Shown here one piece after another: positions 1 through 33,411 of a stretch of DNA of 42,489 nt; the first letter of the stretch is position 1; the number at the start of each line of letters is the position of its first letter. The stretch is from a virus. Its lineage: Duplodnaviria > Caudoviricetes. Below the pieces are notes generated by a model. It saw nothing but the letters and a program-made list of their open reading frames with translations. It was not told the origin of the DNA and searched no databases. The position numbers and the translations under genes are program-made. Location of the stretch: positions 1 to 42,489 of the IMG/VR virus record IMGVR_UViG_3300037605_000001. The stretch is one strand, 5' to 3'.

Positions 1-86
1 GCCCGAGGCCGTTCGGCCCCTTGTGTTGAATCCAAAGGGTTTTTCCGGTGTCCCACCGTGGGACATGATATCAAAAGCAAAGGGAA

Positions 87-126
87 TGGTGGGTGATAAG
101 AGATTCGAACTCCTGACATCTTCGAT
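87..126 (-). mobile_element. att core candidate: 3' half of a tRNA (probably tRNA-Val)
   Basis: Minus strand reads ATCGAAGATGTCAGGAGTTCGAATCTCTTATCACCCACCA: 3' anticodon stem, T-arm with GTTCGAAT loop, acceptor strand and CCA. The 5' half is absent. The Val assignment is from recalled similarity to alphaproteobacterial tRNA-Val. Confidence 0.8.
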
Positions 127-144
127 TTGTATCTTCGGAGTCAG

Positions 145-237
145 GATGTAGTAGTATCGCACATCCATACCCAACAAGATCAGTCACTTACGTCAGTCAA
201 GTTTCGTAGGTCCATACATCTAATCAAGATGTAGTAG
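145..237. repeat. GATGTAGTAG direct repeat (145-154, 228-237), possible integrase arm or operator sites
   Basis: Exact 10-mer twice beside the att core, plus an inverted TACATC/GATGTA pair at 215-233. Confidence 0.4.
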
Positions 238-286
238 CCACATTCCTGACACACGGCTTCCTTTGGATCAATCCAAGGGAAAAACC

Positions 287-1105
287 ATGAGCGATTTTTG
301 GTGGGCCGATCTGGGTGACGAAACCCTGACGGAAACGGCGTGGGAACGCCAAATGAACATCGCCGGAATAGAGGCTTTCGAGCAAGCCCGATACACCGCT
401 TCCGGCCAGACCAAGAAGGCCAGCGAATCACGCACTGGTCAGAAGGTGCTGCGTAAGTTCCTCGAAAGAGCGGCTGACGCTATCCTTGAAATGCAGAAGA
501 ACCTTCTCGGTATCCATCGGATCGACCGGACCCTGAGGGCAACGGTCCTTCTGGTCCCTGAGGAAGTGGCTTCGATGCTGGTCCTGAGGGCACTCATTGA
601 CCGGACCTATGGGATCGCTGATCAGGACAAGGGGTATAACTACCAAATCCTGAGCAAAGAGATTGCCAAGTCGGTCGAGACTGAACTGAACTTCCGGCAC
701 TGGCTGAACGAGAGCCAGAAGCAGTCTGCCAAGTATGCCAAGGAGAAGGGCCTGAGCAAGGTTCCCAAGTCTCTGGCTGAACGGCTGATCGAAGAACAGG
801 GCGTGAGCCGTGCTTCCTTCTTCCGCTGGAAACAGACCTTCGATGAACTCAACACATACGAGTGGAGCACCCTTGAGCAGCACTACTGCGGGGAGGCTCT
901 GCTTCTGACTGTGATCGAAGCCCTCCCTGAGGCTTTCGAAATCAGCATCGTCACGGAGCGTGGCAAGACCACCAAGCACGTCAGGATGAAGCCTGAGTTC
1001 CGCAAATACTTCGATGACATGGAGGCCAAGATCGCCCGACTTCAGGTCGTCAGGAAACCCATGATCGCCCGACCACGGCGATGGACCAAAGGAGAAACCG
1101 AATGA
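287..1105 (+). CDS. T7-type RNA polymerase, N-terminal domain subunit
   Basis: Segments match the T7 RNAP N-terminal domain: WERQMNIAGIEAF, PEEVASMLVLRAL, EIAKSVETELNF, WSTLEQHYCG, and PMIARPRRWT (T7 PCVVPPKPWT). ATG 287 follows AAGGGA, preferred over TTG 263. Confidence 0.85.
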   Translation: MSDFWWADLGDETLTETAWERQMNIAGIEAFEQARYTASGQTKKASESRTGQKVLRKFLERAADAILEMQKNLLGIHRIDRTLRATVLLVPEEVASMLVLRALIDRTYGIADQDKGYNYQILSKEIAKSVETELNFRHWLNESQKQSAKYAKEKGLSKVPKSLAERLIEEQGVSRASFFRWKQTFDELNTYEWSTLEQHYCGEALLLTVIEALPEAFEISIVTERGKTTKHVRMKPEFRKYFDDMEAKIARLQVVRKPMIARPRRWTKGETE

Positions 1106-1326
1106 CCGGACCATACGATGTCTGCGGGACATCAAAAGAGGATGAGCCGTATGTCTATGGGGTCAGTGGCCCCGGCAACGGGCTGGGGTTCCATAGCTGG
1201 TATCTCTACCCCGAAAACACATTCGAAACCTACGCGGAAGCCGAGAAAGCCGCCCGCTTGATGAACCTTGCCTTCAACGAAGGCCAGAAAACCAGATCAC
1301 GAGAAATACGGGAGTTACTGCAATGA
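1102..1326 (+). CDS. hypothetical protein inserted between the RNAP halves
   Basis: ATGA overlap with upstream stop; AAAGGAG at 1088-1094. Confidence 0.75.
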   Translation: MTGPYDVCGTSKEDEPYVYGVSGPGNGLGFHSWYLYPENTFETYAEAEKAARLMNLAFNEGQKTRSREIRELLQ

Positions 1327-1370
1327 CCCTTCTTATCGCAATCATGATCGCCTGTGCGGTCTATCTCTGA
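1323..1370 (+). CDS. 15-aa hydrophobic peptide MTLLIAIMIACAVYL
   Basis: ATGA overlap, GGGAG upstream, fills the gap between neighbours; very short. Confidence 0.4.
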   Translation: MTLLIAIMIACAVYL

Positions 1371-1381
1371 GGGTATCACCG

Positions 1382-1582
1382 ATGACCGGATACCCACGTC
1401 CAAGACGCAGCTACTACCTTGACGACATGGACCTGAAGCCGGGGGACAAGGTTCAGTGCAAGTGTTCAATGGGCCAGCCTGAGTGGACACCGGGAGCGGT
1501 CTACACCGTCCTGCCCGATGGCTACCTGACAGACAACACTGGGTCGAAGGTCATCCCTTCAGCCCGTTTCACATACCTCTAA
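1382..1582 (+). CDS. hypothetical small beta-barrel-like protein
   Basis: ATG 1382 after GAGGG; LKPGDKVQC...WTPGAVYTV pattern is common in small phage proteins. Confidence 0.7.
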   Translation: MTGYPRPRRSYYLDDMDLKPGDKVQCKCSMGQPEWTPGAVYTVLPDGYLTDNTGSKVIPSARFTYL

Positions 1583-1592
1583 GGAGCAACCC

Positions 1593-1784
1593 ATGATCCG
1601 TGGATCAATCAAGAATATGACCGAGGCCGACTGGCGGGATCATTACCGTCACCCCGACAATTTCTTCACGCTGTTCAAGGACTACCGCCAGTTGCGGGAT
1701 GCCGACCAGCGCCGCGAACTATCGTCGGCTGAAGAGGCCCAGAAGCGAGTGATCGAAGAGATGATCGACTCCAAGCTGGCTTAG
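1593..1784 (+). CDS. hypothetical protein
   Basis: AAGGAG RBS, 63 aa. Confidence 0.75.
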   Translation: MIRGSIKNMTEADWRDHYRHPDNFFTLFKDYRQLRDADQRRELSSAEEAQKRVIEEMIDSKLA

Positions 1785-1831
1785 ACCAGTCCAAAGCAGA
1801 AACGACCCATGAGCAGAACAAGGGAATCGAA

Positions 1832-3613
1832 ATGACTGTCCATTACGAAGGCGGATACTTCCTCTTCAATGACCCCATTGTCAGGGGCTTTGGCGGCAAC
1901 GCACACACGGCCAACGACCTGTCGAACCTGAGCGGTTACACGGTCGAGGCTGTGAACTACATCCAAGACACACCTTGGCAGGTCAACCCCTACATGATGG
2001 AGACGATTGATACGTTCTTCGAAGCTGGGGAAGACCTGACCGTCGAAGGTAAGGCTGGCACTGAAGTCATCCTCAGGATCGCCATGCCTCTCAACCCCCG
2101 GCTGGACCCCAACGAACCCACCAACAACCTCATCTCGAAAGATGACTGGGCGATGATGGACAAGGAGTCCCGCCAAGCGGTCAAGCAGAAGCGGGCCAAG
2201 GTGCTCACTCGGTTCGAGGAAGAACTGGGGGTCTATCGGGCCACTCGTCGCATCTTCGAGACTGCCAAGGAGATGTCTCAGTTCGACCAGTTCTTCTTTC
2301 CCCACAACCTCGACTTCAGGACTCGCATCTACCCGATCCCGACAGACCTGACTCCCCAGTCCTCGGACTTCTCCAAGGGGATGCTGAGGTTCGCCCGCCC
2401 TACCCGTCTGGGCAAGGAAGGGTATTTCTGGCTTGGGGTCATGGTTGCGTCTCACTGGGGCGAGGACAAGCTGTCACCCAAGGACCGCTTCATGTTTGCT
2501 CAGGAGCCTGAGTTCAACATCAAGATGTGTTCGTGGGTCGATGATCCCTTCGAGAACCGGGAGTGGCTTCAGGCTGATAAGCCGTTCCAGTTCCTTGCAG
2601 CCGCTCATGAGTGGGTCTGGGCCAACCGCCTTGAGAACCCCTATGAGTTCATGAGCCGCCAGCCGGGGAACCTCGACGGATCGTGCAACGGTGCCCAACA
2701 CCTGAGCATCATGGCACGGGACTTGGTGGGGGCTACTGCTACCAACTGTCGGGCTGACTGGGCGACTGGGGGAGAACGCTTCGACCTCTACATGGAAGTG
2801 GCTGATCGGGTCTGGCAACAGGTCCAGAGGGATGCAGCCAAGGGTGATCCTGTGGCGCTTGAGTGGGTTCCTAAGATGCAGGAAGCCTCTGATCGCCGGA
2901 AGGTCGTCAAGCGGTCAGTCATGACGGTTCCCTACGGTGTGACCGATCATGGCGTGGCTGACTTCATGATCAAGGACAAGCACGTTGCTGAGGACTCCCA
3001 GAACCAGTGGGACTCTGCCAAATACATGCGTGACCTGATCATGTCGTCCATTGACGAAACCCTGAGCAATGGCCGGAAGCTGCAACTCTGGTTCATGGAG
3101 TGTGCTCGTCGGTGTGCTGAGGAAGGGCTTCCGTTGATCTGGGACACCCCTGCCGGATCGAAGGTCACACAAGCGTATCGGAACCTGATCCAGAAGCGGG
3201 TCCGGTCCTTTGACACTCGGTTCTACATCTATGAGGAACCGAAGCCGGGAGAGGATGAGGACGACTTCTACCTGCGTGTGGGTATGAATGAACGTAAGAT
3301 GGCTACAGCGGCCCCGCCCAATGTGGTCCACTCCTGCGATGCCTCTCACCTTCAGATCACGGTCTGCCGGATGGCTGATGCCGGGATCAAGGACTTCTCA
3401 ATGATCCATGACAGTTTCGGCTGTCCTCTGGCTCATGTGGGTCTGATGCGGAACATCCTGAGACAATCCATCGTGGATATGTATTCGGGGGACTACCTTC
3501 AGAAGTTCAAGAAGTCGGTCGAGGACTACACCGGACTGAAGATGCCTGAACCGCCCTCTCTGGGGGAGTTCGACATCAGCGAGATTCTGGATTCCGAGTT
3601 CTTCTTCGCCTGA
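1832..3613 (+). CDS. T7-type RNA polymerase, catalytic subunit
   Basis: DFRTRIYP (DxxGR variant), motif A LDGSCNGAQH, motif B RKVVKRSVMTVPYG, NVVHSCDA, motif C IHDSFG, C-terminal FFFA. Confidence 0.97.
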   Translation: MTVHYEGGYFLFNDPIVRGFGGNAHTANDLSNLSGYTVEAVNYIQDTPWQVNPYMMETIDTFFEAGEDLTVEGKAGTEVILRIAMPLNPRLDPNEPTNNLISKDDWAMMDKESRQAVKQKRAKVLTRFEEELGVYRATRRIFETAKEMSQFDQFFFPHNLDFRTRIYPIPTDLTPQSSDFSKGMLRFARPTRLGKEGYFWLGVMVASHWGEDKLSPKDRFMFAQEPEFNIKMCSWVDDPFENREWLQADKPFQFLAAAHEWVWANRLENPYEFMSRQPGNLDGSCNGAQHLSIMARDLVGATATNCRADWATGGERFDLYMEVADRVWQQVQRDAAKGDPVALEWVPKMQEASDRRKVVKRSVMTVPYGVTDHGVADFMIKDKHVAEDSQNQWDSAKYMRDLIMSSIDETLSNGRKLQLWFMECARRCAEEGLPLIWDTPAGSKVTQAYRNLIQKRVRSFDTRFYIYEEPKPGEDEDDFYLRVGMNERKMATAAPPNVVHSCDASHLQITVCRMADAGIKDFSMIHDSFGCPLAHVGLMRNILRQSIVDMYSGDYLQKFKKSVEDYTGLKMPEPPSLGEFDISEILDSEFFFA

Positions 3614-3650
3614 GTCTCAATAACGGTCCTCACTAGGACATAGAAACCCG
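3613..3650 (+). promoter_or_regulatory. 38-bp repeat, putative phage RNAP promoter (copy 1)
   Basis: AGTCTCAATAACGGTCCTCACTAGGACATAGAAACCCG is identical to 9790-9827; both copies are intergenic. Confidence 0.7.
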
Positions 3651-3798
3651 ATCCCTTCAGTGGGGTCGGGCCTCCCCTTCCCCTTCAGACGATGCACTGG
3701 GCTGTTCCCTTGGTTCTCCCTCCTTTCTGCTCATGCAGTCTGGTGCATCTTCTGAGCGGGAACGCTCTAACAACGGTCGCCCTCGTGGCGGCTTTTTT
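3640..3798 (+). ncRNA. putative sRNA or structured leader
   Basis: Lies between the promoter-like repeat and a terminator. Short hairpin 3646-3670; long stem 3685-3704/3736-3755 with G-U pairs; 31-nt pyrimidine-rich loop. The 5' end is approximate. Confidence 0.55.
3776..3798 (+). terminator. intrinsic terminator
   Basis: GTCGCC-CTCGT-GGCGGC followed by T6. Confidence 0.7.
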
Positions 3799-3826
3799 AT
3801 CTTGGACTGATCCAAAGGAGAGAGAA

Positions 3827-4051
3827 ATGGAAGCCAAGGAACTGAAACTCGGTGGTCGCTATGTTCGCCGCGATGGAACTGTCACGCCGCCGCTGGAAAC
3901 CAGCCTTCATTGGCGTGGTGGACTGACCGATCCCGAAACAGGTGCGGACTACGATCCGAAGTCCGATGAGGGCCACTTCTACTACGAAGGCGACACTCAC
4001 GAACTCGACCTCGTGGCGGTCTACGTCGAACACGCATCGGAGGCAGCATGA
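3827..4051 (+). CDS. hypothetical protein
   Basis: AAAGGAG RBS before ATG 3827 (MEAKELKLGGRYVRRDG); the longer 3692 start runs through the structured RNA. Confidence 0.75.
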   Translation: MEAKELKLGGRYVRRDGTVTPPLETSLHWRGGLTDPETGADYDPKSDEGHFYYEGDTHELDLVAVYVEHASEAA

Positions 4052-4302: not shown

Positions 4303-4923
4303 ATGGCTAAAGGCCCACAGTTCAAAGACTGGGTAACTCCGGTCGGTATGTTCAAGATGACCTTCTTGGACAAGCCCAGTCCGCCCTTCGAGGGCAAGGG
4401 TGATCCCATGTATAAAACCCGCATCCTGCTGGACGACACGGCAGAGAACCGGGAGTTCGTGGCGAAGGTGATCGCCAAGGCTGAGGAAGAGGCGAAGACC
4501 CACAAGGTCAAGCTGAAGAAGCAGTATCACAACCCCTTCATCATGCCGGAAGACATGGACGACGACGACTTCGTTCCCGAGGAAGGCAAGACCAACCCGA
4601 AGTATGACGAAGACCACCGCGACAAGATCATCTTCGACATCAAGTCGAAATACAAGCCGGGGCTGATCGACGCCGCCCGTGAGTCCCTGCCGGAAGACGT
4701 GAAAATCTACGGTGGTGACAAGGGCCGTGTGAAGTTCGTGGCTTCGCCCTTCGTCTCTGGTGCCAACACAGGTATCACCCTGCGTCTGGTCACTGTCCAG
4801 TTGGTCGAGAAGAACGCCAACTACGGCGGCAACCGTGGTCCGAACACCGATGGCTTCGATGACATCGACGGTTATGTGGCCCCCGCTGGCTCCGGCGAGG
4901 ATGACGAGGAAGAAGACTTCTGA
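4303..4923 (+). CDS. single-stranded DNA-binding protein (T7 gp2.5-like)
   Basis: TPVG start motif, GITLRLVTVQLVE strand, acidic tail ending in Phe; position before the resolvase. Confidence 0.85.
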   Translation: MAKGPQFKDWVTPVGMFKMTFLDKPSPPFEGKGDPMYKTRILLDDTAENREFVAKVIAKAEEEAKTHKVKLKKQYHNPFIMPEDMDDDDFVPEEGKTNPKYDEDHRDKIIFDIKSKYKPGLIDAARESLPEDVKIYGGDKGRVKFVASPFVSGANTGITLRLVTVQLVEKNANYGGNRGPNTDGFDDIDGYVAPAGSGEDDEEEDF

Positions 4924-5366
4924 TGGAGACACGGTTCACCATTGAGGCTGAACCTGTCCCTGCTTCCCGGCCAAGGGTGACTACGAGAGGGGTTCCCTAT
5001 TACCCCAAGAAGCACACGGCCTACAGCGAGTATCTGAAGCAATCTCTGAAGGAGGTCGGGGTCAATCATGATCCCGGCCCCGTCGAGGTCCGCTTGCTGT
5101 TTGTCATGCCTCCCTACAAGACCTCGGACCACCCTGTCCACCGTGCTGACGTGGACAACCTTGCGAAGCTGCCTCTGGACAGCATGACGAAGATCATGGG
5201 TGACGATGAACACCCCGTGTTCTGGCCCGACGATTGTTTCGTCTCTTCGTTGATGACGTTCAAGCGGTTCGCAAGGGAGGGAGAGCAGCCACATACCAAG
5301 GTTCGCATCAAGAGTATCAAAGGTTCAATCGAAGACCACGTTGACGAGGCATTTGAGAATGGCTGA
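4923..5366 (+). CDS. rusA: RusA-family Holliday junction resolvase
   Basis: PVPASRPR, DVDNLAK...D and WPDD motifs. Confidence 0.85.
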   Translation: METRFTIEAEPVPASRPRVTTRGVPYYPKKHTAYSEYLKQSLKEVGVNHDPGPVEVRLLFVMPPYKTSDHPVHRADVDNLAKLPLDSMTKIMGDDEHPVFWPDDCFVSSLMTFKRFAREGEQPHTKVRIKSIKGSIEDHVDEAFENG

Positions 5367-5772
5367 GAAGAAACCTCACCCCCTTCATCGTGCTTGGGCC
5401 GCTGGATTCTTTGAGTCCCGAAACCAATGGCCCAGAACAGGCTACACCCTTCGTATCGAGTCTATGATCGAAGACCTGATGATCCGCTTCCACGACATCG
5501 TGGGGGTCGGCAAGATCGACATCAGCTACTCGAAGGTGAAGGCCACCTACATCTATCGAACCACCAACATGGATGACACCAGAGAACTTCTGTTGTGCCT
5601 CTCACCGTTCTTCACGGGGAGCCGACTGAAGATGGCGACTGACATGATCGGGCGGATCGAAAGGAATCCCATATGGATCAAAAATCACCCGGAGAAAGCA
5701 GCAAATGCTGTGCTCCAACGGCCTTCGGGAAAAACGGACGAGGACAGCGAAAAGGTGGATACCACCAAGTAA
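5359..5772 (+). CDS. LAGLIDADG-like protein with degenerate motif
   Basis: WAAGFFESR resembles AGFFDGEG; later GVGKI...YIYR...LLLCLSPFF fits the fold. Confidence 0.5.
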   Translation: MAEKKPHPLHRAWAAGFFESRNQWPRTGYTLRIESMIEDLMIRFHDIVGVGKIDISYSKVKATYIYRTTNMDDTRELLLCLSPFFTGSRLKMATDMIGRIERNPIWIKNHPEKAANAVLQRPSGKTDEDSEKVDTTK

Positions 5773-6080
5773 GGATCAATGGTCAAGTCCAATACCTTCA
5801 CAGACTTGTCTACGAAGAACACCACGGACCAATACCAGACGGATGGCAGGTCCATCATAGGTGTGAGAACACTCTCTGCATCAACATAGACCACCTTGAG
5901 TGTATCAGCTTTGCAGAACACCGAAGACGACATGCTGGAACACAGCATGACTTCGAAGCTGCGCGGAAGGTCTGGCTTGAGACAGGTGTGGGTAGTCGTA
6001 GGCTTCAAAGGCTATTCCCCTACAACCGATCAACCTTAGACACATGGATACGAGAATGGAAACAGACACCCATTTCGTAA
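5673..6080 (+). CDS. HNH endonuclease
   Basis: HRLVYEEHHGPIPDGWQVHHRCENTLCINIDHLE; start uncertain. Confidence 0.85.
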   Translation: MDQKSPGESSKCCAPTAFGKNGRGQRKGGYHQVRINGQVQYLHRLVYEEHHGPIPDGWQVHHRCENTLCINIDHLECISFAEHRRRHAGTQHDFEAARKVWLETGVGSRRLQRLFPYNRSTLDTWIREWKQTPIS

Positions 6081-7726
6081 GGAATGTCCCCTGTCATCAC
6101 TGTGGAAGCAGAGACAACGGAGCACTCTATTCATCGGGTTGGGTTCATTGCTTTGGCTGTGGAGAGAACTGGCGGGACGACGGAAACTATCAAGAGTCCA
6201 TTGGACCAATCCAAAGGAGTTCAAAAATGGACCTTCAGTTCATTCAAGGTGAACCTCTGGCCTTGCCCAAACGGGGTATCTCAGAGGATGTGTGTAAGCG
6301 GTTCAACTATCTGACTGGCAAGGTCCCCGACAACTATCCCGCCAAGGAGGGTTCGGCCCTTGCTGCCATGCGTGGCAAGACCGTCCAGATCGAGAACTAC
6401 TATGAGGATCGCAAGCTGATCGCTCAGAAGTTGCGGGACAAGGACAAGAACTTCGCTTGGATCGGGAAGGCTGGACAAGCCCTCTTTGGCCGACACTGTG
6501 TCAAGCCGGGAGGCAAGGTTCTGGTCGTCACCGAGGGGGCAATCGACACCCTGTCCTATGCCGAGATGCGGAAGGGCTGGCCCGCCGTGTCCATCCCGAA
6601 TGGTGCTCAGTCTGCACCGAAGGCTCTGAAGGAGAACCTAGAGTTCCTTGAGTCCTTCGAGAAGGTCGTCCTGTGCTTTGACAACGACGAGGAAGGCCAG
6701 AAGGCCGCTGAAGCCTGTAAGGGTATCCTCAGCCCCAAGAAGATGTTCATCGCCAGTCTGCCGACCGAGTTCAAGGACCTGAACGAGGCCCTGCAAGAGG
6801 GCGCTGTCAAGGCCGCTCTGCAAGCTGTCATGAACGCTGAGGAAGTCCGACCGGACAACCTTGTGTCGGTCGAGGACGTGCTGGAAGAGGCCCTGAAGCC
6901 CATTGAGATGGGTCTGCCGTGGTTCTTGGAGGAACTCACCGCCCTGACCTATGGACGCCGCTATGGTGAGGTCTATGCGCTGGGTGCTGGCACAGGCGTT
7001 GGCAAGACTGACGTGCTGACCGAGCAGATCGCCTATGACATCATGACCCTGAACCTGAAGGTAGGAACCCTGTTCCTCGAACAGAAGCCCGCTGAGACGG
7101 TCAAGAGGGTCGCTGGCAAGGTGGCCTCTCGACGGTTCCATGTGCCTGACTCAGGCTGGACCGAAGAGGAACTCAGGACCGCCGTGCATCGCCTCAAAGG
7201 CAAGCTGATGCTCTATGACTCCTTCGGGGAGACAGACTGGGATCAGGTCAAGACTCGCATCCGGCACATGGCCGTGGCCGAGGGTATCCGTATCTTCTAC
7301 GTCGATCACCTGACCGCTATGGCCGATACCTCAGATGAGCGGGGCAGTCTCGAACAGATCATGAAAGAGATGGCTGGTCTAGCCAACGAACTTCAGATCA
7401 TCATCACCTTTGTCTCTCACTTGGCGACACCTGATGGCACCCCTCACGAGGAAGGTGGTCGGGTCGCTATCCGTCACTTCAAGGGGTCACGGTCCATCGG
7501 CTTCTGGTCCTTCTTCATGTTTGGACTTGAGCGGGACCAACAGGCCGACGACGAGGACGAGAGACACAGGACCACCTTCAGGGTGCTCAAGGACCGCTAC
7601 ACGGGTCAGGCAACAGGACACACCTTCAACCTCGGTTATGACGCTGAGACAGGGAGGATCATCCCTCCTGATGCTCTTGGGTTCGCCACTGACAAACCAT
7701 CAACCGATATAGGAGAAGGGTTCTAA
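6056..7726 (+). CDS. primase-helicase (T7 gp4-like)
   Basis: CHHC...CFGC zinc finger, TOPRIM EGAID and FDND, Walker A AGTGVGKT, DHL, LKDR. Start is 6056 or 6044. Confidence 0.96.
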   Translation: METDTHFVRNVPCHHCGSRDNGALYSSGWVHCFGCGENWRDDGNYQESIGPIQRSSKMDLQFIQGEPLALPKRGISEDVCKRFNYLTGKVPDNYPAKEGSALAAMRGKTVQIENYYEDRKLIAQKLRDKDKNFAWIGKAGQALFGRHCVKPGGKVLVVTEGAIDTLSYAEMRKGWPAVSIPNGAQSAPKALKENLEFLESFEKVVLCFDNDEEGQKAAEACKGILSPKKMFIASLPTEFKDLNEALQEGAVKAALQAVMNAEEVRPDNLVSVEDVLEEALKPIEMGLPWFLEELTALTYGRRYGEVYALGAGTGVGKTDVLTEQIAYDIMTLNLKVGTLFLEQKPAETVKRVAGKVASRRFHVPDSGWTEEELRTAVHRLKGKLMLYDSFGETDWDQVKTRIRHMAVAEGIRIFYVDHLTAMADTSDERGSLEQIMKEMAGLANELQIIITFVSHLATPDGTPHEEGGRVAIRHFKGSRSIGFWSFFMFGLERDQQADDEDERHRTTFRVLKDRYTGQATGHTFNLGYDAETGRIIPPDALGFATDKPSTDIGEGF

Positions 7727-7950
7727 TGGACCAATCCAAAGGACACCTAGGCGATGATCAACTGATCCGCCTGACCGCATTGCAACTGGCAATCGGTGCT
7801 CACGCAAAGGAGAACGGCTGGCCGGATGACATCATCGTTCAGGCCCGTCAGTTCTACCTGTTCTTGGCTCAGAAAGACCCCTGTGTCGATCTGGGTCAGG
7901 ACAAGCACGACAACGTGGTTTCCATGTTGGAGGACTACGGATTTGAGTGA
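7726..7950 (+). CDS. hypothetical protein
   Basis: TAATG coupling to the helicase stop. Confidence 0.65.
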   Translation: MDQSKGHLGDDQLIRLTALQLAIGAHAKENGWPDDIIVQARQFYLFLAQKDPCVDLGQDKHDNVVSMLEDYGFE

Positions 7951-9787
7951 AAGAATCTTCTTCGCTGACTGTGAGGGAGATAACTTTCTGGAAGACATCT
8001 CGACGATGTGGACTATCCAGATCGCTCAAGAGGTCGATGCCCCGGTCGAGGTCTTTGCGGACCAACCGGGATACAAGCCCCTGAAGCAAGGCATGGAACT
8101 GTTGATGGAGTGCGATAAGGTCGTATTCCACAACGGCTTCGGCTTTGACTTCTGGGCGCTGAACAAGGTCGTCGGGGAGCGGTATAACCTGTTCCTCGAC
8201 CGCCACCAGATCATCGACTCCCTCATCATCAGCCGACTGATCGACAGCACGTCCAAGCGCCACTCCCTCGCTGAACTGGGTGAGAACCTAGGGTTCCGCA
8301 AGGGCGACCACCATGACTTCTCTCAGTTCTCTGAAGAGATGGTCAAGTATGGCAAGCAGGATGTGCGTATCCTTCAAGAGGCGTGGAAGCTGCCTTCGCA
8401 GAGACGCAAGGTTTCAAAGGTCCCGTCCTTTGGCAAGTTCTACGACACCTTCAAGCCCGCCTGTGAGACTGAGTTTCAGACCGCCTATGTGATCGAAAAG
8501 CAGTCCCAGCATGGCTTCAGGTTCGACTACGAGTCGGCCCAGATGCTTGAGGCGGAACTGAGGCACGAACAGAAGCAACTCGAAAGGGACCTTCAGAAGA
8601 TTTTCCCCCCGATCACGCATGAGCGTTACTCGGAGAAGACAGGGAAGCGCCTGAAGGACAAGATCGAAGTCTTCAACCCCGGTTCCCGTGACCAGATCGC
8701 TGACCGCTTGATCACCAAATACAAGTGGAAGCCGATTGACCTGACACCCACCAAGAAGCCCAAGATTGACGAGACGATCCTTGACGCCCTGCCCTACCCT
8801 GAGGCCAAGGAGATTGCTCGGTATATGACCTTGGGCAAGAAGCTGGGTCAGGTGGCCGATGGCGACAACGCTTGGCTCAAGATGGCGAAGCCCAAACCTG
8901 ATGGGTCCTTCTACATCCACGGTCGCATCAACACCCTTGGTGCTCGGACACACCGGATGTCTCACTTTGCGCCAAACTTGGCACAGGTGGACTCCGACCC
9001 TCGCATGAGGTCCCTGTTCCTAGCTGACCCTGACCACTTCCTGATCGGTGTGGACGCTGAGGGTCTGGAACTGAGGGAACTCGCCCACTTCCTCTACCCC
9101 TATGACCAAGGCCGCTACGTCGAGATTGTTCACAGCGGCGACAAGTCCAAAGGGACTGACATCCACACGATGAACATGAAGGCGGCTGAGTTGTTCCTCA
9201 GGGACAGCGCCAAGACCATGATCTATGCCCACAACTATGGGTGCTTCGACAAGAAGCTGGGTCAGATCGTCATGGACGATGCCAAGGCCGCTGGACAGCC
9301 CACTCCTGAGGGGTCCCTGAGCGCCATTGGTGCCCGCCTCCGGTCCAAGATCGAGGTTGGCATTGTCGGTCTGGGGGAACTGATTGCCAAGTGCAAGCGC
9401 ACCCACGGCAAGATGAAGGCCCTCCCCGGCCACGATGGACGCTGGATACCTTCAGCCTCCGATCACTCTGCCCTGAACACCCTGCTTCAAGGCAACGGTT
9501 CAATCGTCATGAAGAAGGCTCTGGTCATCTTCGAAGACGAACTTGAGAAGCTGCAACTGTTGGACAAGGTGCTCTACTGCGCCAACGTCCACGACGAGTT
9601 TCAGCTATCGGTTCACCCTGACCTCGTGACCTACCACGGTGACGACGACAAGGGCCGACCGATCTACACAAGCCCAATCGCTGAGTTGGGCCGTGAGAGC
9701 ATCACCAAAGCTGGTGAGGCGCTGGGGGTTCGTTGCCCTCTGGTCGGTTCTGCCGACATCGGACGTAGCTGGGCCGATACACACTAA
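7943..9787 (+). CDS. DNA polymerase, family A (T7 gp5-like)
   Basis: Exonuclease motifs DCE, HNGFGFD, YGKQD; polymerase motifs DAEGLELR, RDSAKTMIY, VHDE. TTG 7943 follows GGAGG. Confidence 0.96.
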   Translation: MSERIFFADCEGDNFLEDISTMWTIQIAQEVDAPVEVFADQPGYKPLKQGMELLMECDKVVFHNGFGFDFWALNKVVGERYNLFLDRHQIIDSLIISRLIDSTSKRHSLAELGENLGFRKGDHHDFSQFSEEMVKYGKQDVRILQEAWKLPSQRRKVSKVPSFGKFYDTFKPACETEFQTAYVIEKQSQHGFRFDYESAQMLEAELRHEQKQLERDLQKIFPPITHERYSEKTGKRLKDKIEVFNPGSRDQIADRLITKYKWKPIDLTPTKKPKIDETILDALPYPEAKEIARYMTLGKKLGQVADGDNAWLKMAKPKPDGSFYIHGRINTLGARTHRMSHFAPNLAQVDSDPRMRSLFLADPDHFLIGVDAEGLELRELAHFLYPYDQGRYVEIVHSGDKSKGTDIHTMNMKAAELFLRDSAKTMIYAHNYGCFDKKLGQIVMDDAKAAGQPTPEGSLSAIGARLRSKIEVGIVGLGELIAKCKRTHGKMKALPGHDGRWIPSASDHSALNTLLQGNGSIVMKKALVIFEDELEKLQLLDKVLYCANVHDEFQLSVHPDLVTYHGDDDKGRPIYTSPIAELGRESITKAGEALGVRCPLVGSADIGRSWADTH

Positions 9788-9789
9788 CC

Positions 9790-9827
9790 AGTCTCAATAA
9801 CGGTCCTCACTAGGACATAGAAACCCG
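9790..9827 (+). promoter_or_regulatory. 38-bp repeat, putative phage RNAP promoter (copy 2)
   Basis: Identical to 3613-3650. Confidence 0.7.
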
Positions 9828-9860
9828 GTCTGTATTGGACCAATCCAAAGGAGAGAAGAA

Positions 9861-10385
9861 ATGAATGTTGGTGATCGCGTCAAGCCTGTCGCTACTTTTG
9901 AGTTCGGTCTGTATGCGGGTCCTGATGACCTGAACGACCGTGGGACCATCGTTGAGGTCCACCCGCCGTTTGGCGAAACCTACGGCCCCATTGCGATTGT
10001 CCAGTGGGACGAGGGCCGGAAGTCGGACCATGCGACCTTCGCTGATCGTGGTGCTGGCCTCACCGCATACCGTGAGTTCGGCGTTGTGCTGGTCGAAGAG
10101 GAAGCTGAAGAGGCAACCGAGGAAGAGGCAACTGATGTGGCTGAGGAAGCCACCCCCGCCAATACCCATGAGTTCCCCATCGGGACTCGTGTGAAGCCTG
10201 TCGAGACATTCGACTTCGACAACTTCGTCGGTCCTGCGGATGTCAACGATGAGGGGACGGTCGTGGGTTACGACCTCGACGGTGATCCTGTCGTGGAGTG
10301 GGATCGTGGCCGCCGTGCCAACCACCTGACCAACGACAACCACCCTGACTACGACTTCGCTGAGTTCGGGGTCGTCAAGGTATGA
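9861..10385 (+). CDS. hypothetical acidic protein with a duplicated domain
   Basis: Two similar halves: RVKPV...GP.D.ND.GT.V...V.WD.GR...H.T...EFGVV.V. Confidence 0.85.
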   Translation: MNVGDRVKPVATFEFGLYAGPDDLNDRGTIVEVHPPFGETYGPIAIVQWDEGRKSDHATFADRGAGLTAYREFGVVLVEEEAEEATEEEATDVAEEATPANTHEFPIGTRVKPVETFDFDNFVGPADVNDEGTVVGYDLDGDPVVEWDRGRRANHLTNDNHPDYDFAEFGVVKV

Positions 10386-11134
10386 CCAAGATCACAGCCT
10401 TCATTGACGCAGATATTCTGCTTCATCGGGCTGTGTCATTCGTGGACCGTGAGTTCGACGGGGAGAAGATGAACGACTGGAAGCGGTCGGTCTGGTTCTT
10501 CGACTCCCTGTTCGACAAGTGGATGAAGGAAATTGGAAAGGTGGACGACTGGTATCTGGTCGTCTCACCACCCAAGAACTTCCGCCACGACCTCTACGCT
10601 GACTACAAAGGCAACCGGAAGGACATTGAGCCTCACCCGACCTTTGTGATGCTGAAAGAGGAAATCAAGGACAGACAGGGGACGATCTGGGAGGATAACC
10701 TAGAGGCAGATGACCTGATCGGTATCCGATGCTCCGAGGACCCCAAGGGGACTCTGGCTGTATCTGCCGACAAGGACTTTGCAACTGTCCCCTGTCGTCT
10801 CCTGATCCCAACCTCACATGGGGCCAAAGCGCCCACCAAGAAGACCTTCTCTGAAGCTGAAGCGAACCGGAACTGGCTGATCCAGACCATGACCGGGGAC
10901 ACCATCGACAATTACAAAGGCATACCGGGGATTGGACCCAAGAAGGCCGAGGCAATCATCCCTCGCCCAGCGCCTTTGAAGCAGATGTGGGGAAGCGTCA
11001 GACAAGCCTTCTTGGACAAAGGAATGACTGAGGCTGATGCCATTCAGATGGCTCGTCTCGCCCGAATCCTCCGTCATGGAGACTACGATTTTGAGAAGAA
11101 GGAAGTGAACCTATGGCACCCAAGTTCCCTGTAG
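10382..11134 (+). CDS. 5'-3' exonuclease (T7 gp6-like)
   Basis: DAD, YKGNR, EADD, DKD, GDTIDNYKGIPGIG. Confidence 0.93.
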   Translation: MTKITAFIDADILLHRAVSFVDREFDGEKMNDWKRSVWFFDSLFDKWMKEIGKVDDWYLVVSPPKNFRHDLYADYKGNRKDIEPHPTFVMLKEEIKDRQGTIWEDNLEADDLIGIRCSEDPKGTLAVSADKDFATVPCRLLIPTSHGAKAPTKKTFSEAEANRNWLIQTMTGDTIDNYKGIPGIGPKKAEAIIPRPAPLKQMWGSVRQAFLDKGMTEADAIQMARLARILRHGDYDFEKKEVNLWHPSSL

Positions 11135-11724
11135 GGAGTCGAGTGATCTGCGTTGACAACACGGGAATCTACAAGTCCCGCTACACCAAGGGCAAGGTCT
11201 ACGTTGTCCAAGAACACAAGCCTGAGCATCAGAACCCTGACTGGGAAGATGGCGTCACCATCAAAGGTGATGATGGCATGGTCTATTGGACCTATGACTG
11301 GCGTTGGAAGCTGGCCGACGAATGGAACGCATCTGAGGCTGACTTTGCCGACCAAGACATCCTGGCCTCAGGCAACCCCAAGGACCTGATCGGCGTCAAG
11401 AAGCCCAGCTTCGAGTTCATCCCGATGGCTACGGTCATGCAAACCAACGAAGCCTTCCGTGATGGAGCGGCCAAGTATGGTGCGTTCAACTGGCGTCAGT
11501 CCAAGGTTCGGGCTGATGTCTACTACAACGCCGCCCTGCGTCACATCACCCAGTGGTATCTTGGGAACGACAAAGCGTCCGACTCCAAGATCGACCACCG
11601 TGCTCATGCAATCGCCTGTCTGATGATCCTGATGGATGCTGAGGAACAGGGATCGCTGATCGACAATCGCCCGAAGGTGGGCGTCCCGCTGGATGAGTTC
11701 ATCCAAGCGAACACGAAGGACTGA
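11113..11724 (+). CDS. DUF5664-type dATP/dGTP diphosphohydrolase-domain protein
   Basis: NPKD..G..K, GAAKYGAFNWR, AALRH and H.AHAIACLMIL motifs. Confidence 0.8.
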   Translation: MAPKFPVGSRVICVDNTGIYKSRYTKGKVYVVQEHKPEHQNPDWEDGVTIKGDDGMVYWTYDWRWKLADEWNASEADFADQDILASGNPKDLIGVKKPSFEFIPMATVMQTNEAFRDGAAKYGAFNWRQSKVRADVYYNAALRHITQWYLGNDKASDSKIDHRAHAIACLMILMDAEEQGSLIDNRPKVGVPLDEFIQANTKD

Positions 11725-28239: not shown

Positions 28240-31200
28240 TTACGACAGTGCAGTCGGGATTTGCTTCGGATCGACCTTCTGGACACCTTGGCGACCCATG
28301 ATGAACTGGATCAGTTCAGGATCACCGAGGGCTTGGATCGGGATTTGGTTGGCCTCCAAGATGCTGAGGAAGATGTTGTAGTCTTCCGCACCAAGTTCCT
28401 GCATCACCTGAACCCAAGTCTCCTGAGTCCTCTGAGCATCCTTGGGGTGAATACCGTAGGAGTCGTGGATCGGGTTGAAGGTGTTCAGAGGCTCTTGCTC
28501 CTGAAGACGCTTGTGAGTCTCACGCAAGGCCCAAGCATCGTTCTGGTGCGTCATGAACGCGGCCAGACCTCGACCTGCCATCTTTGTGTCGGTTCCACGG
28601 ACACCTAGAGGCACCACGTTACCGTCACCGAGGGCAATTTCAGCCTTCTCGAAGATGGGGTTCTGCTTGAAGCTGTATTCCAGCATCATGCCATCCTTGG
28701 TCGGAACCTTGACCGTCTCTCGACCAGCAGCCTTCACAATGTCCGATACCTTCTGAGCGAAGTTCAGGTATTGCCTCATGCCGGGGAACTGGACGTTCAT
28801 CTGCTTGATCAACTCTTGGTTCATCCGAGCATAGAAGTAGTTCTCGTAGGCCGAGCGGACTGCATCAGCCCTGCTACCGAACTTGGTCCCGTTCGAGACG
28901 AACTTTCCGGTCAGACCATCAGCAACTTCGATGACGAACTTGTCACCACTGGGGACGATCCGCTTGCGCTTCATCGGGGGCTTCGAAGGCTCACCATCAG
29001 CGTCAAAGTGCGGGGTCACAAACAGATGCCCATCTTGGGAATCCATCTCAGAGATGATGTTCTCAGGGACCGGGATCAGACCGTTTTCCTCGACACCGAA
29101 GATCGGGACATCCTTGCCAGCAATCTCGGACAGGGCGTCCTTGAAAGCCTTCTTGCGGGAATTGAAAGCAGCAGCGTAGAGATACGTCCCTACAGGCTTC
29201 TTGAAGATTTTCCGCAGCACGGACCCCGGCAGATCAAGGTCAGACAGTTCGGGGATTTCCATTGTGGCGGGTCCCGCAACCTGCATGTAGATGTCACCAC
29301 CTTGACGCATATCAGGATCACCAGAGGCACCCTCAGGAGGGAGCATACCAGTGGACTGAAGAACGTCAGTGTAGCCCATCACCATACCAGCGATCTGATA
29401 GGCGTTGTTCGAGGCGTCCAACTGGACGATGAAGTCTGTCTCGTAGTTCTGAGCCAGATCGGCACGAACCTCAGGGTCCTGAAGCAGTTCCTTGGGTTTC
29501 AGCTTGCTCTTGTCTTTGTGACGTTCCCTTGCCCAGTCCACCATGCTCTTGACTTCATGGGCGGCGTTCAGGGCTTGGAAGAACCCTTCCGAACCTTTGA
29601 CCAGCTTCCCTACGGAAGTCAGGTTGCCACTCTTGTCCTCAAGACGGAGACGACCAAAGGGGTCTTCAGCCAGCTTGATCAGGTCATCGACCATCGTGCC
29701 TTCGAAGATAGCCATACGGCGTTCAGCAGGAGGCTTCTTGTCGAAACCAAGGAGGTTTCCGAGGCCGTGGAACACATAGTTCAATCCAGCTTCACCACCC
29801 AGCTTGTCCTTCTGTGCAGAGCGCATCAGACCCTTCATGATGTCACCAGCCTGAGAGTGTGCCAGCCCGTTACGGCTGTAGACACGCAGGTTGGCACCAG
29901 CCATCCACTCCTGACGGATCAGGGTGTTTCCGGCTTCACGGGTTTGGAACAGGAGTTGGGCCACGGTTCTGACGTTGGAGTCATCACGCTTTCCATCCTT
30001 GTCCTTTGGTCTGAGGATGTCGCCAATCGGTCCCAGCTTCGTCGCGTTCACACCGGACAGACCCTTTTCGATCTGGTCCAGCATCTTAGGATGGATCGAA
30101 TGGTAGGTCTGACGCATGGCGTTCAGGAAGTTGAAGATCGGGCGGAAGGCCGGGGTCACTCGGTCACGGGGGATGTCCTTCAGAGCACGGAAGTCACCAT
30201 CTTCAGTGACGTTGTGTCCATACTCGACATCAGGCCCACTCTGAGGAACCATCTTGCCGACTTGCTTGACTGCCTTGGCGATCTGAAGCCGTTCATAGAA
30301 CTCAGGGTCCAATCCATCCGACTTGGTGGCGTTGGGATTGTGGAACTGAAGGTCCACCACCATCAGGGGCTTGGAGGGATCGGTTGGGTCCTTGATGAAC
30401 TTGCCATCATACTTGAGACGGGCGTTGTTCCGAACCATTCGGCGCTTCAGCATACCCTTGTCTTCCATCGCGTTCAGAGCGTTGTTCACGATCTGGGCGG
30501 CTTGGGGGCCGGGGATGGAGTAGAGTTCCGCATAGGCGTCAGAGAGCATATTCACTGTCACACGGTCGGTCGCCATGTCATAGATCAAGGCTTCGACACG
30601 GTGCTCAGGACTCTTCGTCAGTCCTTGCCTGTGGGCTTCCAGCTTCTCGACATCATTCGAAGCACGGTCGATGGACTCGTAGATGTCTTCGATCCGCTCT
30701 TCGACCATCTGGGCCAGACCAGTCCGACCTTTGGCAGCTTTGGGCTTCTTGACCTCGACAATGCTGGGTTCACCCTTGGTCCGCTTCTTGCGGGCTGGGG
30801 TTTCAGCCTTGCGAACTTCAGTGGCCGGGGATTCCGGTTCAGGCCCTTTGGGGTCCTTTGGATTTGATCCAACAGAGACACCACCTTCGCCATCGTCACG
30901 GGGCTTACGCAGCTTGCGAAGCGCCCTTTCTGCCGTTGTCTCAGCAGGACGGTCGGCAGCGGGCCTTTGATTGTCATTGGCGGCTTTCCGAGTCCGCACC
31001 TTTCGGGGCTTCTTGGCTTCCTTCAGCTTCTCATCGAAGGCTTTCTCTTTTTCGGCCTGAACCGGATCGGCTTCACGCTCAATGGCGTAATCGTTGCCCG
31101 CCGCAGCGAGGGGGATGAACTTCGTGCGCCAAGCCTCCACAACAGCCCTCTGCCCTCTCTTCGGGAAGATCAGAGGCAGCATCTCATCTACCAACTTGAA

Positions 31201-33411
31201 GCGGTCGGCACGAGTCATTGCGGGGCTATTGATGGACTCAGCGAGGTCCATGATCATCTGAAGCTGGGTAGAGTCCAGACTGGGGGTTGCGGCTTCGATG
31301 TCAGTCAGAAGGTTCTTGTATCGGCGGTCGCCTTCGATTGCTCTCTGCTTCCGGCGACTTGAGGTCAGCCCTTTGTCAGCAGCTTGGAATTTCTTGAGCA
31401 CCTGATCAGGTTCGGGACCAATCTTCAGCTTACCCTTCCGGTCGAACTGAGGCTGATACTCAGGATTGATCCGTTGACGGACAGCCTCTTGCAGAGCGAT
31501 GATGTCGTTCTTCTTCATCGTGCGGGAGAACCCACCAATGTCTTCAGCATACATCTGAGCAGCACCCTGAGGGGCCAGACCTTCACGCTCAAGCTGTTCC
31601 AGAGCATCTACAACCTCATCACCAGCCTTGCCAATGCGGGCTTCCCAGAGACGGTCCCCTTGCAGCATCGGGTCATCGTTCTGAGGAACCTTACCCGTCT
31701 CGAAGATGGAGGATCGGTTCGAGGCTTCCAGACGGTAGCGACGAGCGAGTTCTTCAGGAGAGACTTGAGTGCTTCCTTGGGATTGGGTCTTTGGTTGGCC
31801 GGGAGACTTCTGACCTCTGGCCGCAGCAGCACCTTGGGCAGTCTGAAGTTTCAGGTTGGCCTTGGCTACCTGATCAGCCAGCTTCAGCTTGGCGAGGGTA
31901 TCACGAGAGGTTTCCCCTTGGATCGGTCCAACGGACTTCTGTTGAGCCTTGGCCGAGTCCACGAAACGCTTCACGCGGGAACGGTTGTTGGTCAGTCTGT
32001 CGATCTGACGTGCAACACGGTTGACAGCGATCAGGGTCCCAGCGGTCCCGATGGAACCAGAGGCGGCAACAGCGATACCTCCGAGAGAGGTAGTGCTGCG
32101 GGGATCGGTTATGTCAAAGCGGCTGGTCTTGGCCGAGAGGCCCCCCATGTCACCTTTGTCACCCTTGGTGAACCTCTGGATCGTGTTGATCTGGTTCGAG
32201 AGAGACTTGAGCCGTTCAACGTCAGCATCAGAATATCCAGACGACTTGAGGGCTTCATAAGCCATCTTCACGTCTTGCTGGAAACTCTCAGGCGACGAGG
32301 AAGACTGCGTTTGGGTTGTCTTCACCAGAGCGTTCAGAGCGACCTCAGCATCTCGACTGCCTTGGTATTTTGCCAGCTTGCGGAGGTCGCTTGCGATCAC
32401 CCCTACTTCAGCACGAATACCACGAAGGGCAGCGTTGGCAGCAGCTTTGGCCGAGCCTGTGTCTGTGTCATTCACATTGGCGAGGACAGCCATGTCACCA
32501 TCAGCGGCCTTCAGGAGGCGGTCGGCAGCACGGATGTCGTCTTCGGACATCTCACCACGGTCAATGCGGCTGAAGAAGTCCCCAGCGTTCTCTGGGGTCA
32601 TGGCGTCAGTGGCACGGATAGCCCCATCAACGGTGACAGCAGAGCCAGCACCGAGCAAACCTTCACCGACAACCATCTTGGGATCGACTTGCCAGCCTTC
32701 TTCAGTTCCGATGGAGCCACCAGTCTGTTGGATAACGGACTGACCACTTTCGGTCACGCCTTCAACGACAGCCCGACGACCGATACCGGAGACACCGGGA
32801 GTCAGGGCGTTAAGGGCACCAGAGGCGGCGGCAGTTGCGGCACCAGCGGCAATGTCACCACCAGTGACCTCAGTGCGGCCATCGTTCTCAGCCCGTTCTT
32901 TGGCGGTCGGTCCAAGGACCTGAAGCACTTCAGGGGCAGCGGCACCTACGAGGCCACCGAGGACGCCACCAACGGCGGCACCTTTGGGACCAAGGAACCC
33001 ACCAGCTTTGGCACCGATTTTGGCACCAGCCCAGCCAGAGGCTAGAGTTGCCCCGAACTGGGGCGCTTGTTCAGCTACAGCACCGGGAGCGGCGTTCAGG
33101 TCGAAGCCTTCTTCTCCCGGTTTCAGGAATTTCTCAGTATAGGTTTTGTAACCCTCAGGGCGGTCAGTCAGCCCTCGGAGCCAGCCCTCAGCCCCTTCGA
33201 AGCCAAGAACCTCAGCCGTATCAGCCACAGATTCAAGCGGACCATCGACAGCGGCCTCAGCCTTATCCCAGAAGGAGGGTTCTTTTTGTGATTGCTGGGC
33301 CGAGGACTGGAGGCGGCGGTATTCCGCCCCCAGCTTACGGACCATCTCTTCATTACCCTCTTGGTGGGCGATCTTGATCCCAGCCTCAAGGCGTTTCAGT
33401 TGGTCACTCAT
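28240..33411 (-). CDS. large internal virion protein with C-terminal T7-type RNA polymerase domain
   Basis: Hydrophobic Gly/Ala N-terminus. C-terminal motifs in order: LRVYS...QAGDIMKGL, GFDKKPPAER, QLDASNNAYQ, DIYMQVA, RKIFKKPVGTYLY, HQNDA, IHDSYG. Confidence 0.9.
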   Translation of the reverse strand: MSDQLKRLEAGIKIAHQEGNEEMVRKLGAEYRRLQSSAQQSQKEPSFWDKAEAAVDGPLESVADTAEVLGFEGAEGWLRGLTDRPEGYKTYTEKFLKPGEEGFDLNAAPGAVAEQAPQFGATLASGWAGAKIGAKAGGFLGPKGAAVGGVLGGLVGAAAPEVLQVLGPTAKERAENDGRTEVTGGDIAAGAATAAASGALNALTPGVSGIGRRAVVEGVTESGQSVIQQTGGSIGTEEGWQVDPKMVVGEGLLGAGSAVTVDGAIRATDAMTPENAGDFFSRIDRGEMSEDDIRAADRLLKAADGDMAVLANVNDTDTGSAKAAANAALRGIRAEVGVIASDLRKLAKYQGSRDAEVALNALVKTTQTQSSSSPESFQQDVKMAYEALKSSGYSDADVERLKSLSNQINTIQRFTKGDKGDMGGLSAKTSRFDITDPRSTTSLGGIAVAASGSIGTAGTLIAVNRVARQIDRLTNNRSRVKRFVDSAKAQQKSVGPIQGETSRDTLAKLKLADQVAKANLKLQTAQGAAAARGQKSPGQPKTQSQGSTQVSPEELARRYRLEASNRSSIFETGKVPQNDDPMLQGDRLWEARIGKAGDEVVDALEQLEREGLAPQGAAQMYAEDIGGFSRTMKKNDIIALQEAVRQRINPEYQPQFDRKGKLKIGPEPDQVLKKFQAADKGLTSSRRKQRAIEGDRRYKNLLTDIEAATPSLDSTQLQMIMDLAESINSPAMTRADRFKLVDEMLPLIFPKRGQRAVVEAWRTKFIPLAAAGNDYAIEREADPVQAEKEKAFDEKLKEAKKPRKVRTRKAANDNQRPAADRPAETTAERALRKLRKPRDDGEGGVSVGSNPKDPKGPEPESPATEVRKAETPARKKRTKGEPSIVEVKKPKAAKGRTGLAQMVEERIEDIYESIDRASNDVEKLEAHRQGLTKSPEHRVEALIYDMATDRVTVNMLSDAYAELYSIPGPQAAQIVNNALNAMEDKGMLKRRMVRNNARLKYDGKFIKDPTDPSKPLMVVDLQFHNPNATKSDGLDPEFYERLQIAKAVKQVGKMVPQSGPDVEYGHNVTEDGDFRALKDIPRDRVTPAFRPIFNFLNAMRQTYHSIHPKMLDQIEKGLSGVNATKLGPIGDILRPKDKDGKRDDSNVRTVAQLLFQTREAGNTLIRQEWMAGANLRVYSRNGLAHSQAGDIMKGLMRSAQKDKLGGEAGLNYVFHGLGNLLGFDKKPPAERRMAIFEGTMVDDLIKLAEDPFGRLRLEDKSGNLTSVGKLVKGSEGFFQALNAAHEVKSMVDWARERHKDKSKLKPKELLQDPEVRADLAQNYETDFIVQLDASNNAYQIAGMVMGYTDVLQSTGMLPPEGASGDPDMRQGGDIYMQVAGPATMEIPELSDLDLPGSVLRKIFKKPVGTYLYAAAFNSRKKAFKDALSEIAGKDVPIFGVEENGLIPVPENIISEMDSQDGHLFVTPHFDADGEPSKPPMKRKRIVPSGDKFVIEVADGLTGKFVSNGTKFGSRADAVRSAYENYFYARMNQELIKQMNVQFPGMRQYLNFAQKVSDIVKAAGRETVKVPTKDGMMLEYSFKQNPIFEKAEIALGDGNVVPLGVRGTDTKMAGRGLAAFMTHQNDAWALRETHKRLQEQEPLNTFNPIHDSYGIHPKDAQRTQETWVQVMQELGAEDYNIFLSILEANQIPIQALGDPELIQFIMGRQGVQKVDPKQIPTALS

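Follow-up and report, generated by a model that had tools for sequence, protein, structure and literature searches.

The origin and advantage of heterodimeric over single-chain T7-type RNA polymerases (RNAPs) are unclear, and 24 heterodimers have been counted among more than 500 homologues (PMC4496689). A 42,489-nucleotide (nt) stretch of viral DNA (Caudoviricetes; IMG/VR record IMGVR_UViG_3300037605_000001, the whole of which we call the window) raises the question afresh: do two genes near its left end, here the N gene and the C gene, still specify one polymerase? The original prediction, made from the letters of the window alone, was of a T7-type RNAP cleanly split in two with three or four small genes at the break, and its coordinates and anatomy were confirmed, with four open reading frames (ORFs) in the spacer. 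Sequence comparisons show that this phage and dozens of relatives carry a T7-type RNAP as two conserved genes, cut at the equivalent of T7 residues 279-283, whose products probably form a non-covalent heterodimer.

The two polymerase genes and the position of the cut

The N gene (Table 1) matched RPOL_N with an expectation value (E) of 3e-6, and its protein matched positions 7-247 of PHROG 414 (the first 247 positions). The C gene matched PF00940 (E 1e-86) and PHROG 414 positions 278-816. Profile alignment to the T7 record placed the N half at T7 17-283 (a weak match, E 0.003) and the C half at T7 279-883 (E 8e-61). The halves are collinear with these two segments of T7 RNAP, and therefore no part of the polymerase has been lost. 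Searches of PDB sequences with the N half or an N profile returned nothing useful; its placement came from fold searches alone. Modelled with AlphaFold (pLDDT 74), the N protein, which has a beta-hairpin at residues 217-234, had T7 RNAP as its best fold match (Foldseek E 8e-6) and aligned to T7 RNAP 48-254 with a Z score of 15.2 and a root-mean-square deviation (rmsd) of 6.0 over 169 residues. The modelled fold supports the identification of the N gene with the T7 promoter-binding domain.

The C half carries DFRTR at residue 161, motif A (D282), motif B (R356, K360 and Y368-G369), motif C (D527) and a C-terminal FFFA. D282, R356, K360, Y368, G369 and D527 were invariant across 70 aligned C halves. 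A DxxGR motif had been expected in the large subunit; its position stood, but the motif reads DFRTR and is not DxxGR proper (T7 has DWRGR).

The cut falls between T7 W278 and G283-Y286, at ends that are strictly conserved on both sides: K257, P258, M259, P263 and W266 were invariant in 30 N halves, as were G7, G8 and Y9 in 70 C halves. In the intact enzymes of the same clade the distance from this W to GGY was 8-11 residues in 22 of 22 rows, 10 of which were assigned to the clade by likeness and not placed in the tree. Outside the clade it was 5-7 residues in 119 of 119 rows (5 in 113); rows with no recognisable motif were dropped from these counts. The N tail (3-7 residues) and the C head (mostly 4-6) together have the length of the longer loop, so the cut lies at the tip of a loop specific to the clade. 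It had been proposed that the two ends rejoin at a shared Thr to give a junction of T7 length. This is a coincidence, since the nearest intact relatives have 8-11 residues from W to GGY and T7 has 5.

Positions 87-3642 were covered by one contig of run X1, possibly the source of the window, with 5 differences and 0 gaps; among the sequencing runs holding this DNA none was listed as RNA. A relative from an independent study (X3, 86-89% identical) has the same break and spacer and differs at 124 positions over 806-1687. A search of isolate records gave no N-half match among isolated phages, and identity to the nearest isolate was only about 32%.

The 726 nt from the N stop to the C start hold four small plus-strand ORFs. 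They had been described as about 730 bp of coupled small ORFs. The length and two ATGA overlaps agree with this, but the 66-aa ORF, the 63-aa ORF and the C gene have their own sites resembling a ribosome-binding site (RBS), after gaps of 11, 10 and 47 nt, so the spacer genes are not all strictly coupled.

Recurrence of the split among relatives

N-half homologues were sought among proteins of 149-476 aa, and 33 stand-alone proteins of 246-280 aa (43-100% identity) were found, two of them the window's own. The C-half search covered 326-1038 aa, so that fused forms could appear. It returned 348 matches, of which the best 120 were listed; the best 71 of these were all 559-606 aa long (46-88% identity), and the first full-length protein among the matches listed was 37% identical. 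C-half relatives each have a start of their own, 2-13 residues before GGY.

At the DNA level, nine junctions were read (the window, L012, L013, L015, L044, L014, L043, L047 and L048). They represent six lineages, the four L012-type loci being close kin. A stop followed by a new ATG was present in all nine and the N gene was always directly upstream of the C gene, with spacers of 726, 202 (four times), 31, 198, 235 and 28 nt, 7 of the 9 out of frame. Two bacterial genome records carry the same break. As a T7-type RNAP the enzyme has a right-hand fold with catalytic motifs A, B and C, and an N-terminal promoter-binding domain, the latter on a separate gene; it is not a single polypeptide, the stop and restart recurring at 9 of 9 junctions.

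The ratio of nonsynonymous to synonymous substitution rates (dN/dS) among the L012-type loci was 0.06-0.19 for the N gene (3 pairs) and 0.04-0.13 for the C gene (3 pairs, 360 codons); values for distant pairs were saturated or nearly so. Between the window and X3, third codon positions of the N gene held 17 of 24 differences among the 40 rows listed of 261. By these comparisons both halves are under purifying selection. The original prediction had proposed searching relatives for the same split, and aligning the halves to T7 and N4 RNAPs. The split recurs in every junction read, under purifying and not relaxed selection, and the alignment to T7 17-283 plus 279-883 is distinct from the N4 cut.

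A quick IQ-TREE phylogeny was built from 113 dereplicated catalytic domains (from 261), in which the split labels of P-numbered rows are predicted starts read without DNA context. The window fell in a group of 28 rows, all split (support 96), nested in a 52-row clade (support 99) in which 40 enzymes are split and 12 intact. On this tree the split label needs 8 changes, of which starred branches force at least 5. On checking, L118 and L120 had a full N gene upstream and L119 a cut-off N gene. A single origin of all hinge-split forms was rejected: holding 23 split rows together gave an approximately unbiased (AU) test p-AU of 1.7e-5, in a 43-row subset picked after the first tree was seen. As placed by this tree, split and intact forms interleave; either the lengthened loop was cut repeatedly or split genes were re-fused. 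Intact enzymes with an 8-11-residue linker that stand among split ones, and are possible re-fusions, are P0106-P0108, P0112-P0114, P0124, P0129, L016, L115-L117, L121, L122 and L124.

A second natural split lies about 20 residues downstream, near the engineered T7 seam at 301-302. It comprises 6 dereplicated rows (support 100), mostly marine, with adjacent or overlapping genes (L129, L131, L133-L136, L138, L145, L161, L171, L181 and others). Separately, a group I intron (RF00028) at L013 3193-3398 interrupts the catalytic-subunit gene within motif B, and so the large gene of a split enzyme is itself spliced. The same intron break occurs in L015, and L089, L112 and L113 have breaks at a similar position. 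L013 has a second group I intron at 10092-10311. In Paracoccus alkanivorans (L050 9998-10276) only the first ~50 residues of the N gene persist, with a palindrome upstream; this remnant is probably an excision scar or a decayed prophage end.

Among the spacer genes only the 63-aa gene is kept across lineages: it occurs at 7 of the 9 junctions, in 4 of the 6 lineages. A profile search collected 41 representatives, 40 proteins of 53-94 aa and one unrelated repeat protein, and co-location with an N- or C-half record was indirectly indicated, by an identical length of the longest contig, for 15 of 20 members looked up. Its dN/dS was 0.13-0.43, over few sites. The family was not identified in Pfam, PHROG, PDB or Atlas, and in a complex prediction with the C and N proteins, run without controls, the 63-aa protein scored 0.03 against a mark of 0.32. 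The 74-, 15- and 66-aa ORFs were seen in near kin of the window alone; judged by the pattern of its substitutions, the 74-aa gene looks coding, third positions holding 11 of the 12 listed X3 differences. No spacer protein matched a named PHROG, Pfam or PDB entry, nor N4 gp2.

A shared upstream motif, a second polymerase and the alternatives to a heterodimer

The sequence TTGGA-N4-TCCAA, with at most one mismatch, occurs 25 times in the window against 1.9 expected, and 0 of 100 shuffles reached 25. A copy of this quasi-palindrome precedes the N gene in each of the 8 junction loci containing the N start, and the C gene in 9 of 9 junctions. The suggestion that the N-terminal domain had become a separately regulated subunit is not supported: the same motif before both halves fits co-regulation at least as well. 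The refined pattern CN-TTRGAY-N2/3-RTCYAA-NG gave 28 sites in the window and 33, 27 and 27 in genomes G001, G002 and G003, whereas 1.11 Mb of loci, mostly with an intact RNAP, held 66 and L118-L120 held 0; it marks this clade and not the split as such. The sites (for example 263, 1781, 3802, 6201, 9835, 28210, 36260, 39093 and 40165 in the window) usually abut an RBS, and some lie inside genes. In the early arm 33 were oriented with transcription, 3 against it and 10 were symmetric.

The motif has about an even chance of being a promoter for a phage polymerase; an operator is a less likely candidate, and an RNA element less likely than that. Given variable position 458, its reader may be either polymerase or either subunit. 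An operator role for the XRE protein encoded beside the integrase is weakened, because a similar helix occurs in 4 intact relatives with 0-2 sites each. A scan of 1-4000 for sigma-70 promoters and terminators stayed at chance level. A simple perfect hairpin was rejected, 70 of 88 exact sites having a non-Watson-Crick innermost pair, C..A or T..G. As a separate observation, this asymmetry gives G-T wobbles on one strand and mismatches on the other, as a template-strand hairpin promoter might show.

In the mechanism that we propose, the N and C proteins would each be translated from their own RBS, and the last strand of N (PM-x2-P-x2-W) and the first strand of C (Y-x-GGY) would pair as the arms of a hairpin whose tip is cut, holding the dimer together. 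The small subunit would act as the T7 N-terminal domain does, in promoter binding and melting and then in shaping the RNA exit path, and the heterodimer would transcribe the replication and later genes. A 1.7-kaa (thousand amino acids) polymerase encoded among the ejection-protein genes would be injected and start early transcription, an N4-like relay reached independently. The 63-aa product could possibly be an accessory modulator. The cut loop tolerates both fission and fusion, and the split may therefore be close to neutral rather than a regulatory invention.

Several points weigh against this reading. The dN/dS values come from a sister lineage and not from the window itself, and the 63-aa gene is absent from L014 and L048 (2 of 6 lineages). 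Late-arm copies of the quasi-palindrome are half antisense (18 versus 16, 8 symmetric), and position 458, the counterpart of the main specificity residue of T7, varies among R, K, Q, V, T and L while the palindrome is constant, a poor fit to this enzyme recognising the motif in the manner of T7. The cut also matches none of the five seams engineered in bisected T7 RNAP (67-74, 160-206, 301-302, 564-607 and 763-770; PMC4299498). In favour of the reading, the pieces made at 301-302 were active when co-expressed, the natural cut lying about 20 residues before that seam, and N4 RNAPII demonstrates that a natural heterodimer can function (PMC4496689).

The variable position 458 beside a constant motif also suggests that recognition may sit in the N protein, with the C half working largely alone or with another factor and N acting as a loose sigma-like factor that leaves once initiation is over, or as a DNA-binding regulator of the palindrome. 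Such a free regulator would also suit halves encoded up to 726 nt from each other and each preceded by a copy of the motif. We consider it improbable, as the residues expected to form the hairpin between the subunits do not vary in either half, N in every case immediately precedes C, and the T7 N-terminal domain is required during elongation as well. A more elaborate scheme, also rather unlikely, is a three-part machine, in which a free-standing sigma-like N protein would read the quasi-palindrome, load onto the core and be open to exchange or titration, with the 63-aa protein as an anti-sigma or assembly switch for prophage silence or induction timing. That the two genes yield one fused polypeptide, by RNA splicing or ribosomal bypassing over the spacer, is very improbable. 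In its favour, the spacer length in the window is divisible by three, the last N codon recurs immediately ahead of the C start, and members of this gene family can carry group I introns (L013); but spacers range over 28-726 nt with 7 of 9 out of frame, the matched codon is found in none of the other 8 junctions, no Rfam intron was detected in the window, the spacer genes are under selection and each C half retains a start of its own at a constant position. An assembly error, or a decaying gene broken by insertion, would be conceivable for an uncultured metagenomic contig, and is the least credible of these alternatives. It is refuted by the single contig covering both halves, the independent relative that repeats the break, the two bacterial genome records and the purifying selection.

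The large protein among the ejection genes raises a further alternative, that the N subunit is shared and also completes this polymerase. The protein had single-subunit RNAP fold matches (Z up to 16.5) and equivalents of motifs A, B and C. Homologues were found in G001, G002 and G003, where they co-occur with the split enzyme as in the window, and not in two partial records; no match was found among 50,697 phage records, including by tblastn against N4-like virion RNAPs. An N profile had no clear match inside it (E 0.29), as sharing would predict. On the other side, it aligned to T7 from residue 60 onward (E 9e-5), its residues 895-1075 resembled RPOL_N clusters (score 0.86, a lead only), and some structural alignments of its last 850 residues, in a low-confidence model (mean pLDDT 58), started at model residue 41 against T7 53 (rmsd 25). 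Together these three weak lines suggest that the large polymerase has an N-terminal-domain region of its own. A virion enzyme would, moreover, have to act before N is made. The large polymerase is also missing from G007, a complete provirus split at the same hinge, and from G006, a complete intact relative; since G007 lacks it, the split is not there to serve this enzyme. Sharing of the small subunit, raised by the original prediction, is therefore unlikely, more so than the free-regulator scheme. Unrelated proteins of ~1690 aa with a C-terminal T7-type RNAP were seen on other viral contigs (L004, L006-L010).

Known two-chain polymerases and the phage genome

The closest functional parallel to the proposed heterodimer is N4 RNAPII of the Schitoviridae, a natural heterodimer of gp15 (269 aa) and gp16 (404 aa; PDB 6DT7) that requires an ssDNA (single-stranded DNA)-binding cofactor, gp2 or Drc (PMC4496689). 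Both are two-gene T7-family RNAPs in a phage with a large second polymerase, and both have small genes nearby that are candidate cofactors, as N4 gp1 and gp2 are (PMC4496689). In N4 the cut is at T7 ~450, about 170 residues from the one described here at 279-283, and the two splits are independent, as had been predicted. The DKRGR of gp15 at 236 aligns to DFRTR 161 of the large half, and on C-half numbering gp15 ends near residue 194 while gp16 starts at about 192-198. The N4 small subunit thus holds the N-terminus, thumb and DxxGR, with a truncated N-terminal domain, whereas here the whole catalytic body, including the DxxGR equivalent, is in one chain and the N-terminal domain is full-size (272 aa, T7 17-283). 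The second polymerase is 1.7 kaa here and 3.5 kaa in N4, and these phages are temperate with genomes of 42-46 kb. Its co-occurrence may parallel the virion polymerase of N4, here as a conserved 1723-aa RNAP among ejection genes that is presumably packaged. The enzyme would work like N4 RNAPII but departs from it in cut site and in lacking a truncated N-terminal domain.

With T7 and the Autographiviridae the enzyme shares fold and motifs, and the phage shares an RNAP gene ahead of a T7-like replication module; it differs in having two polypeptides, an SU10/LUZ24-type portal among late genes that run on the opposite strand, and an extra polymerase in the ejection module. In Autographiviridae head-tail genes lie on the same strand as the replication genes. 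That is not so here, the late arm being on the minus strand with SU10-type portal, capsid and adaptor. HTVC019P-type pelagiphages resemble this group in having an integrase and att site beside the RNAP gene (10.1101/410191). The marine Autographiviridae AG-10.1 and AG-14 have two T7-type RNAPs per genome, an extra one of ~650 aa and a typical one of ~800 aa that, unlike the enzyme described here, is intact; the word 'split' does not occur in the main text (PMC12361551). No account of a cut at this hinge turned up in a literature search that covered few subscription papers and took in PMC12361551, PMC7145618, PMC10504331, PMC8472413, 10.1101/410191, PMC6918029, PMC6775973, PMC6414667 and PMC6487183.

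The T7 N-terminal domain rearranges between initiation and elongation, and the present system could reveal whether an untethered one works. It is an independent natural split that would separate promoter binding from catalysis, in a clade where split and intact sister enzymes occur together and one prophage sits in a named strain, so that the question of split versus single-chain enzymes is directly testable. For synthetic AND gates it supplies an orthogonal polymerase and a split point shaped by evolution. The N-half genes carry hypothetical-protein annotations, and screens for full-length enzymes overlook such forms.

Table 1. Positions of the polymerase genes, spacer ORFs and other features in the window.
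Feature	Position	Strand	Remarks
3' half of a tRNA gene, likely core of attP (phage attachment site)	84..126	-	High-depth contigs match only 84-126, then diverge; relatives integrated just upstream of N gene
Quasi-palindrome TTRGAY-N2/3-RTCYAA	263..276	.	Directly before RBS of N gene; candidate promoter or operator
N gene, T7-type RNAP N-terminal (promoter-binding) domain, predicted small subunit	287..1105	+	272 aa; C-terminal PRRWTKGETE
Spacer gene, 74 aa	1102..1326	+	ATGA overlap with N stop; lineage-specific; no family
Hydrophobic ORF, 15 aa, possible gene	1323..1370	+	ATGA overlap and RBS-like site
Spacer gene, 66 aa	1382..1582	+	RBS-like site; G+C at third codon positions (GC3) 0.71; lineage-specific; only a marginal PHROG match; region also in relative X3
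Conserved spacer gene, 63 aa	1593..1784	+	W-x3-Y...F-x3-F-x-D motif; candidate cofactor or inhibitor
Quasi-palindrome, second copy	1781..1794	.	38 nt before C start
C gene, thumb, palm, fingers and specificity loop, predicted large subunit	1832..3613	+	593 aa; starts MTVHYEGGY
1723-aa protein with C-terminal T7-type RNAP, predicted virion polymerase	28240..33411	-	Among ejection-protein genes; PF00940, PHROG 414

The plus strand of the genome carries a T7-like replication arm; head, tail and lysis genes form a second arm on the minus strand. The RNAP is followed by SSB (a protein that binds single-stranded DNA), nuclease, primase/helicase, DNA polymerase and exonuclease. This is a temperate group, with prophages in Rhodobacteraceae. 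In L047 (Pseudogemmobacter lacusdianii CPCC 101601) and L048 (a Paracoccus metagenome-assembled genome) the N gene has host genes immediately upstream, and the far end carries an XRE gene and integrase; in the complete virus G001 the order is XRE, integrase, N. The integrase and XRE segment of these relatives is missing from the window record. We take the tRNA half at 84-126 to be Val-like; ARAGORN detected no complete tRNA, either in the window or in 8 loci. The XRE helix-turn-helix protein encoded before the integrase (L014 8177-8518, L202 5819-6178 and L205 1932-2270) has a near-identical recognition region in three distant genomes.

The genome is a mosaic. The T7-like replication arm (4303-15605, plus strand) includes ThyX and a ribonucleotide reductase (RNR) carrying a B12-type insertion domain, and the SU10/LUZ24-type head module (17322-39080) lies on the opposite, minus strand, with no close isolate. 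A palindrome, an RBS and an in-frame ATG at 6201-6229, at codon 62 of the primase-helicase and after its zinc-binding domain, likely mark an internal start, which presumably resembles that of T7 gene 4B. The non-coding region 41399-41760, a candidate origin or genome end, contains short tandem repeats and three copies of the motif GAGGCCRCTTATTGAGAC, which also occurs near 40458.

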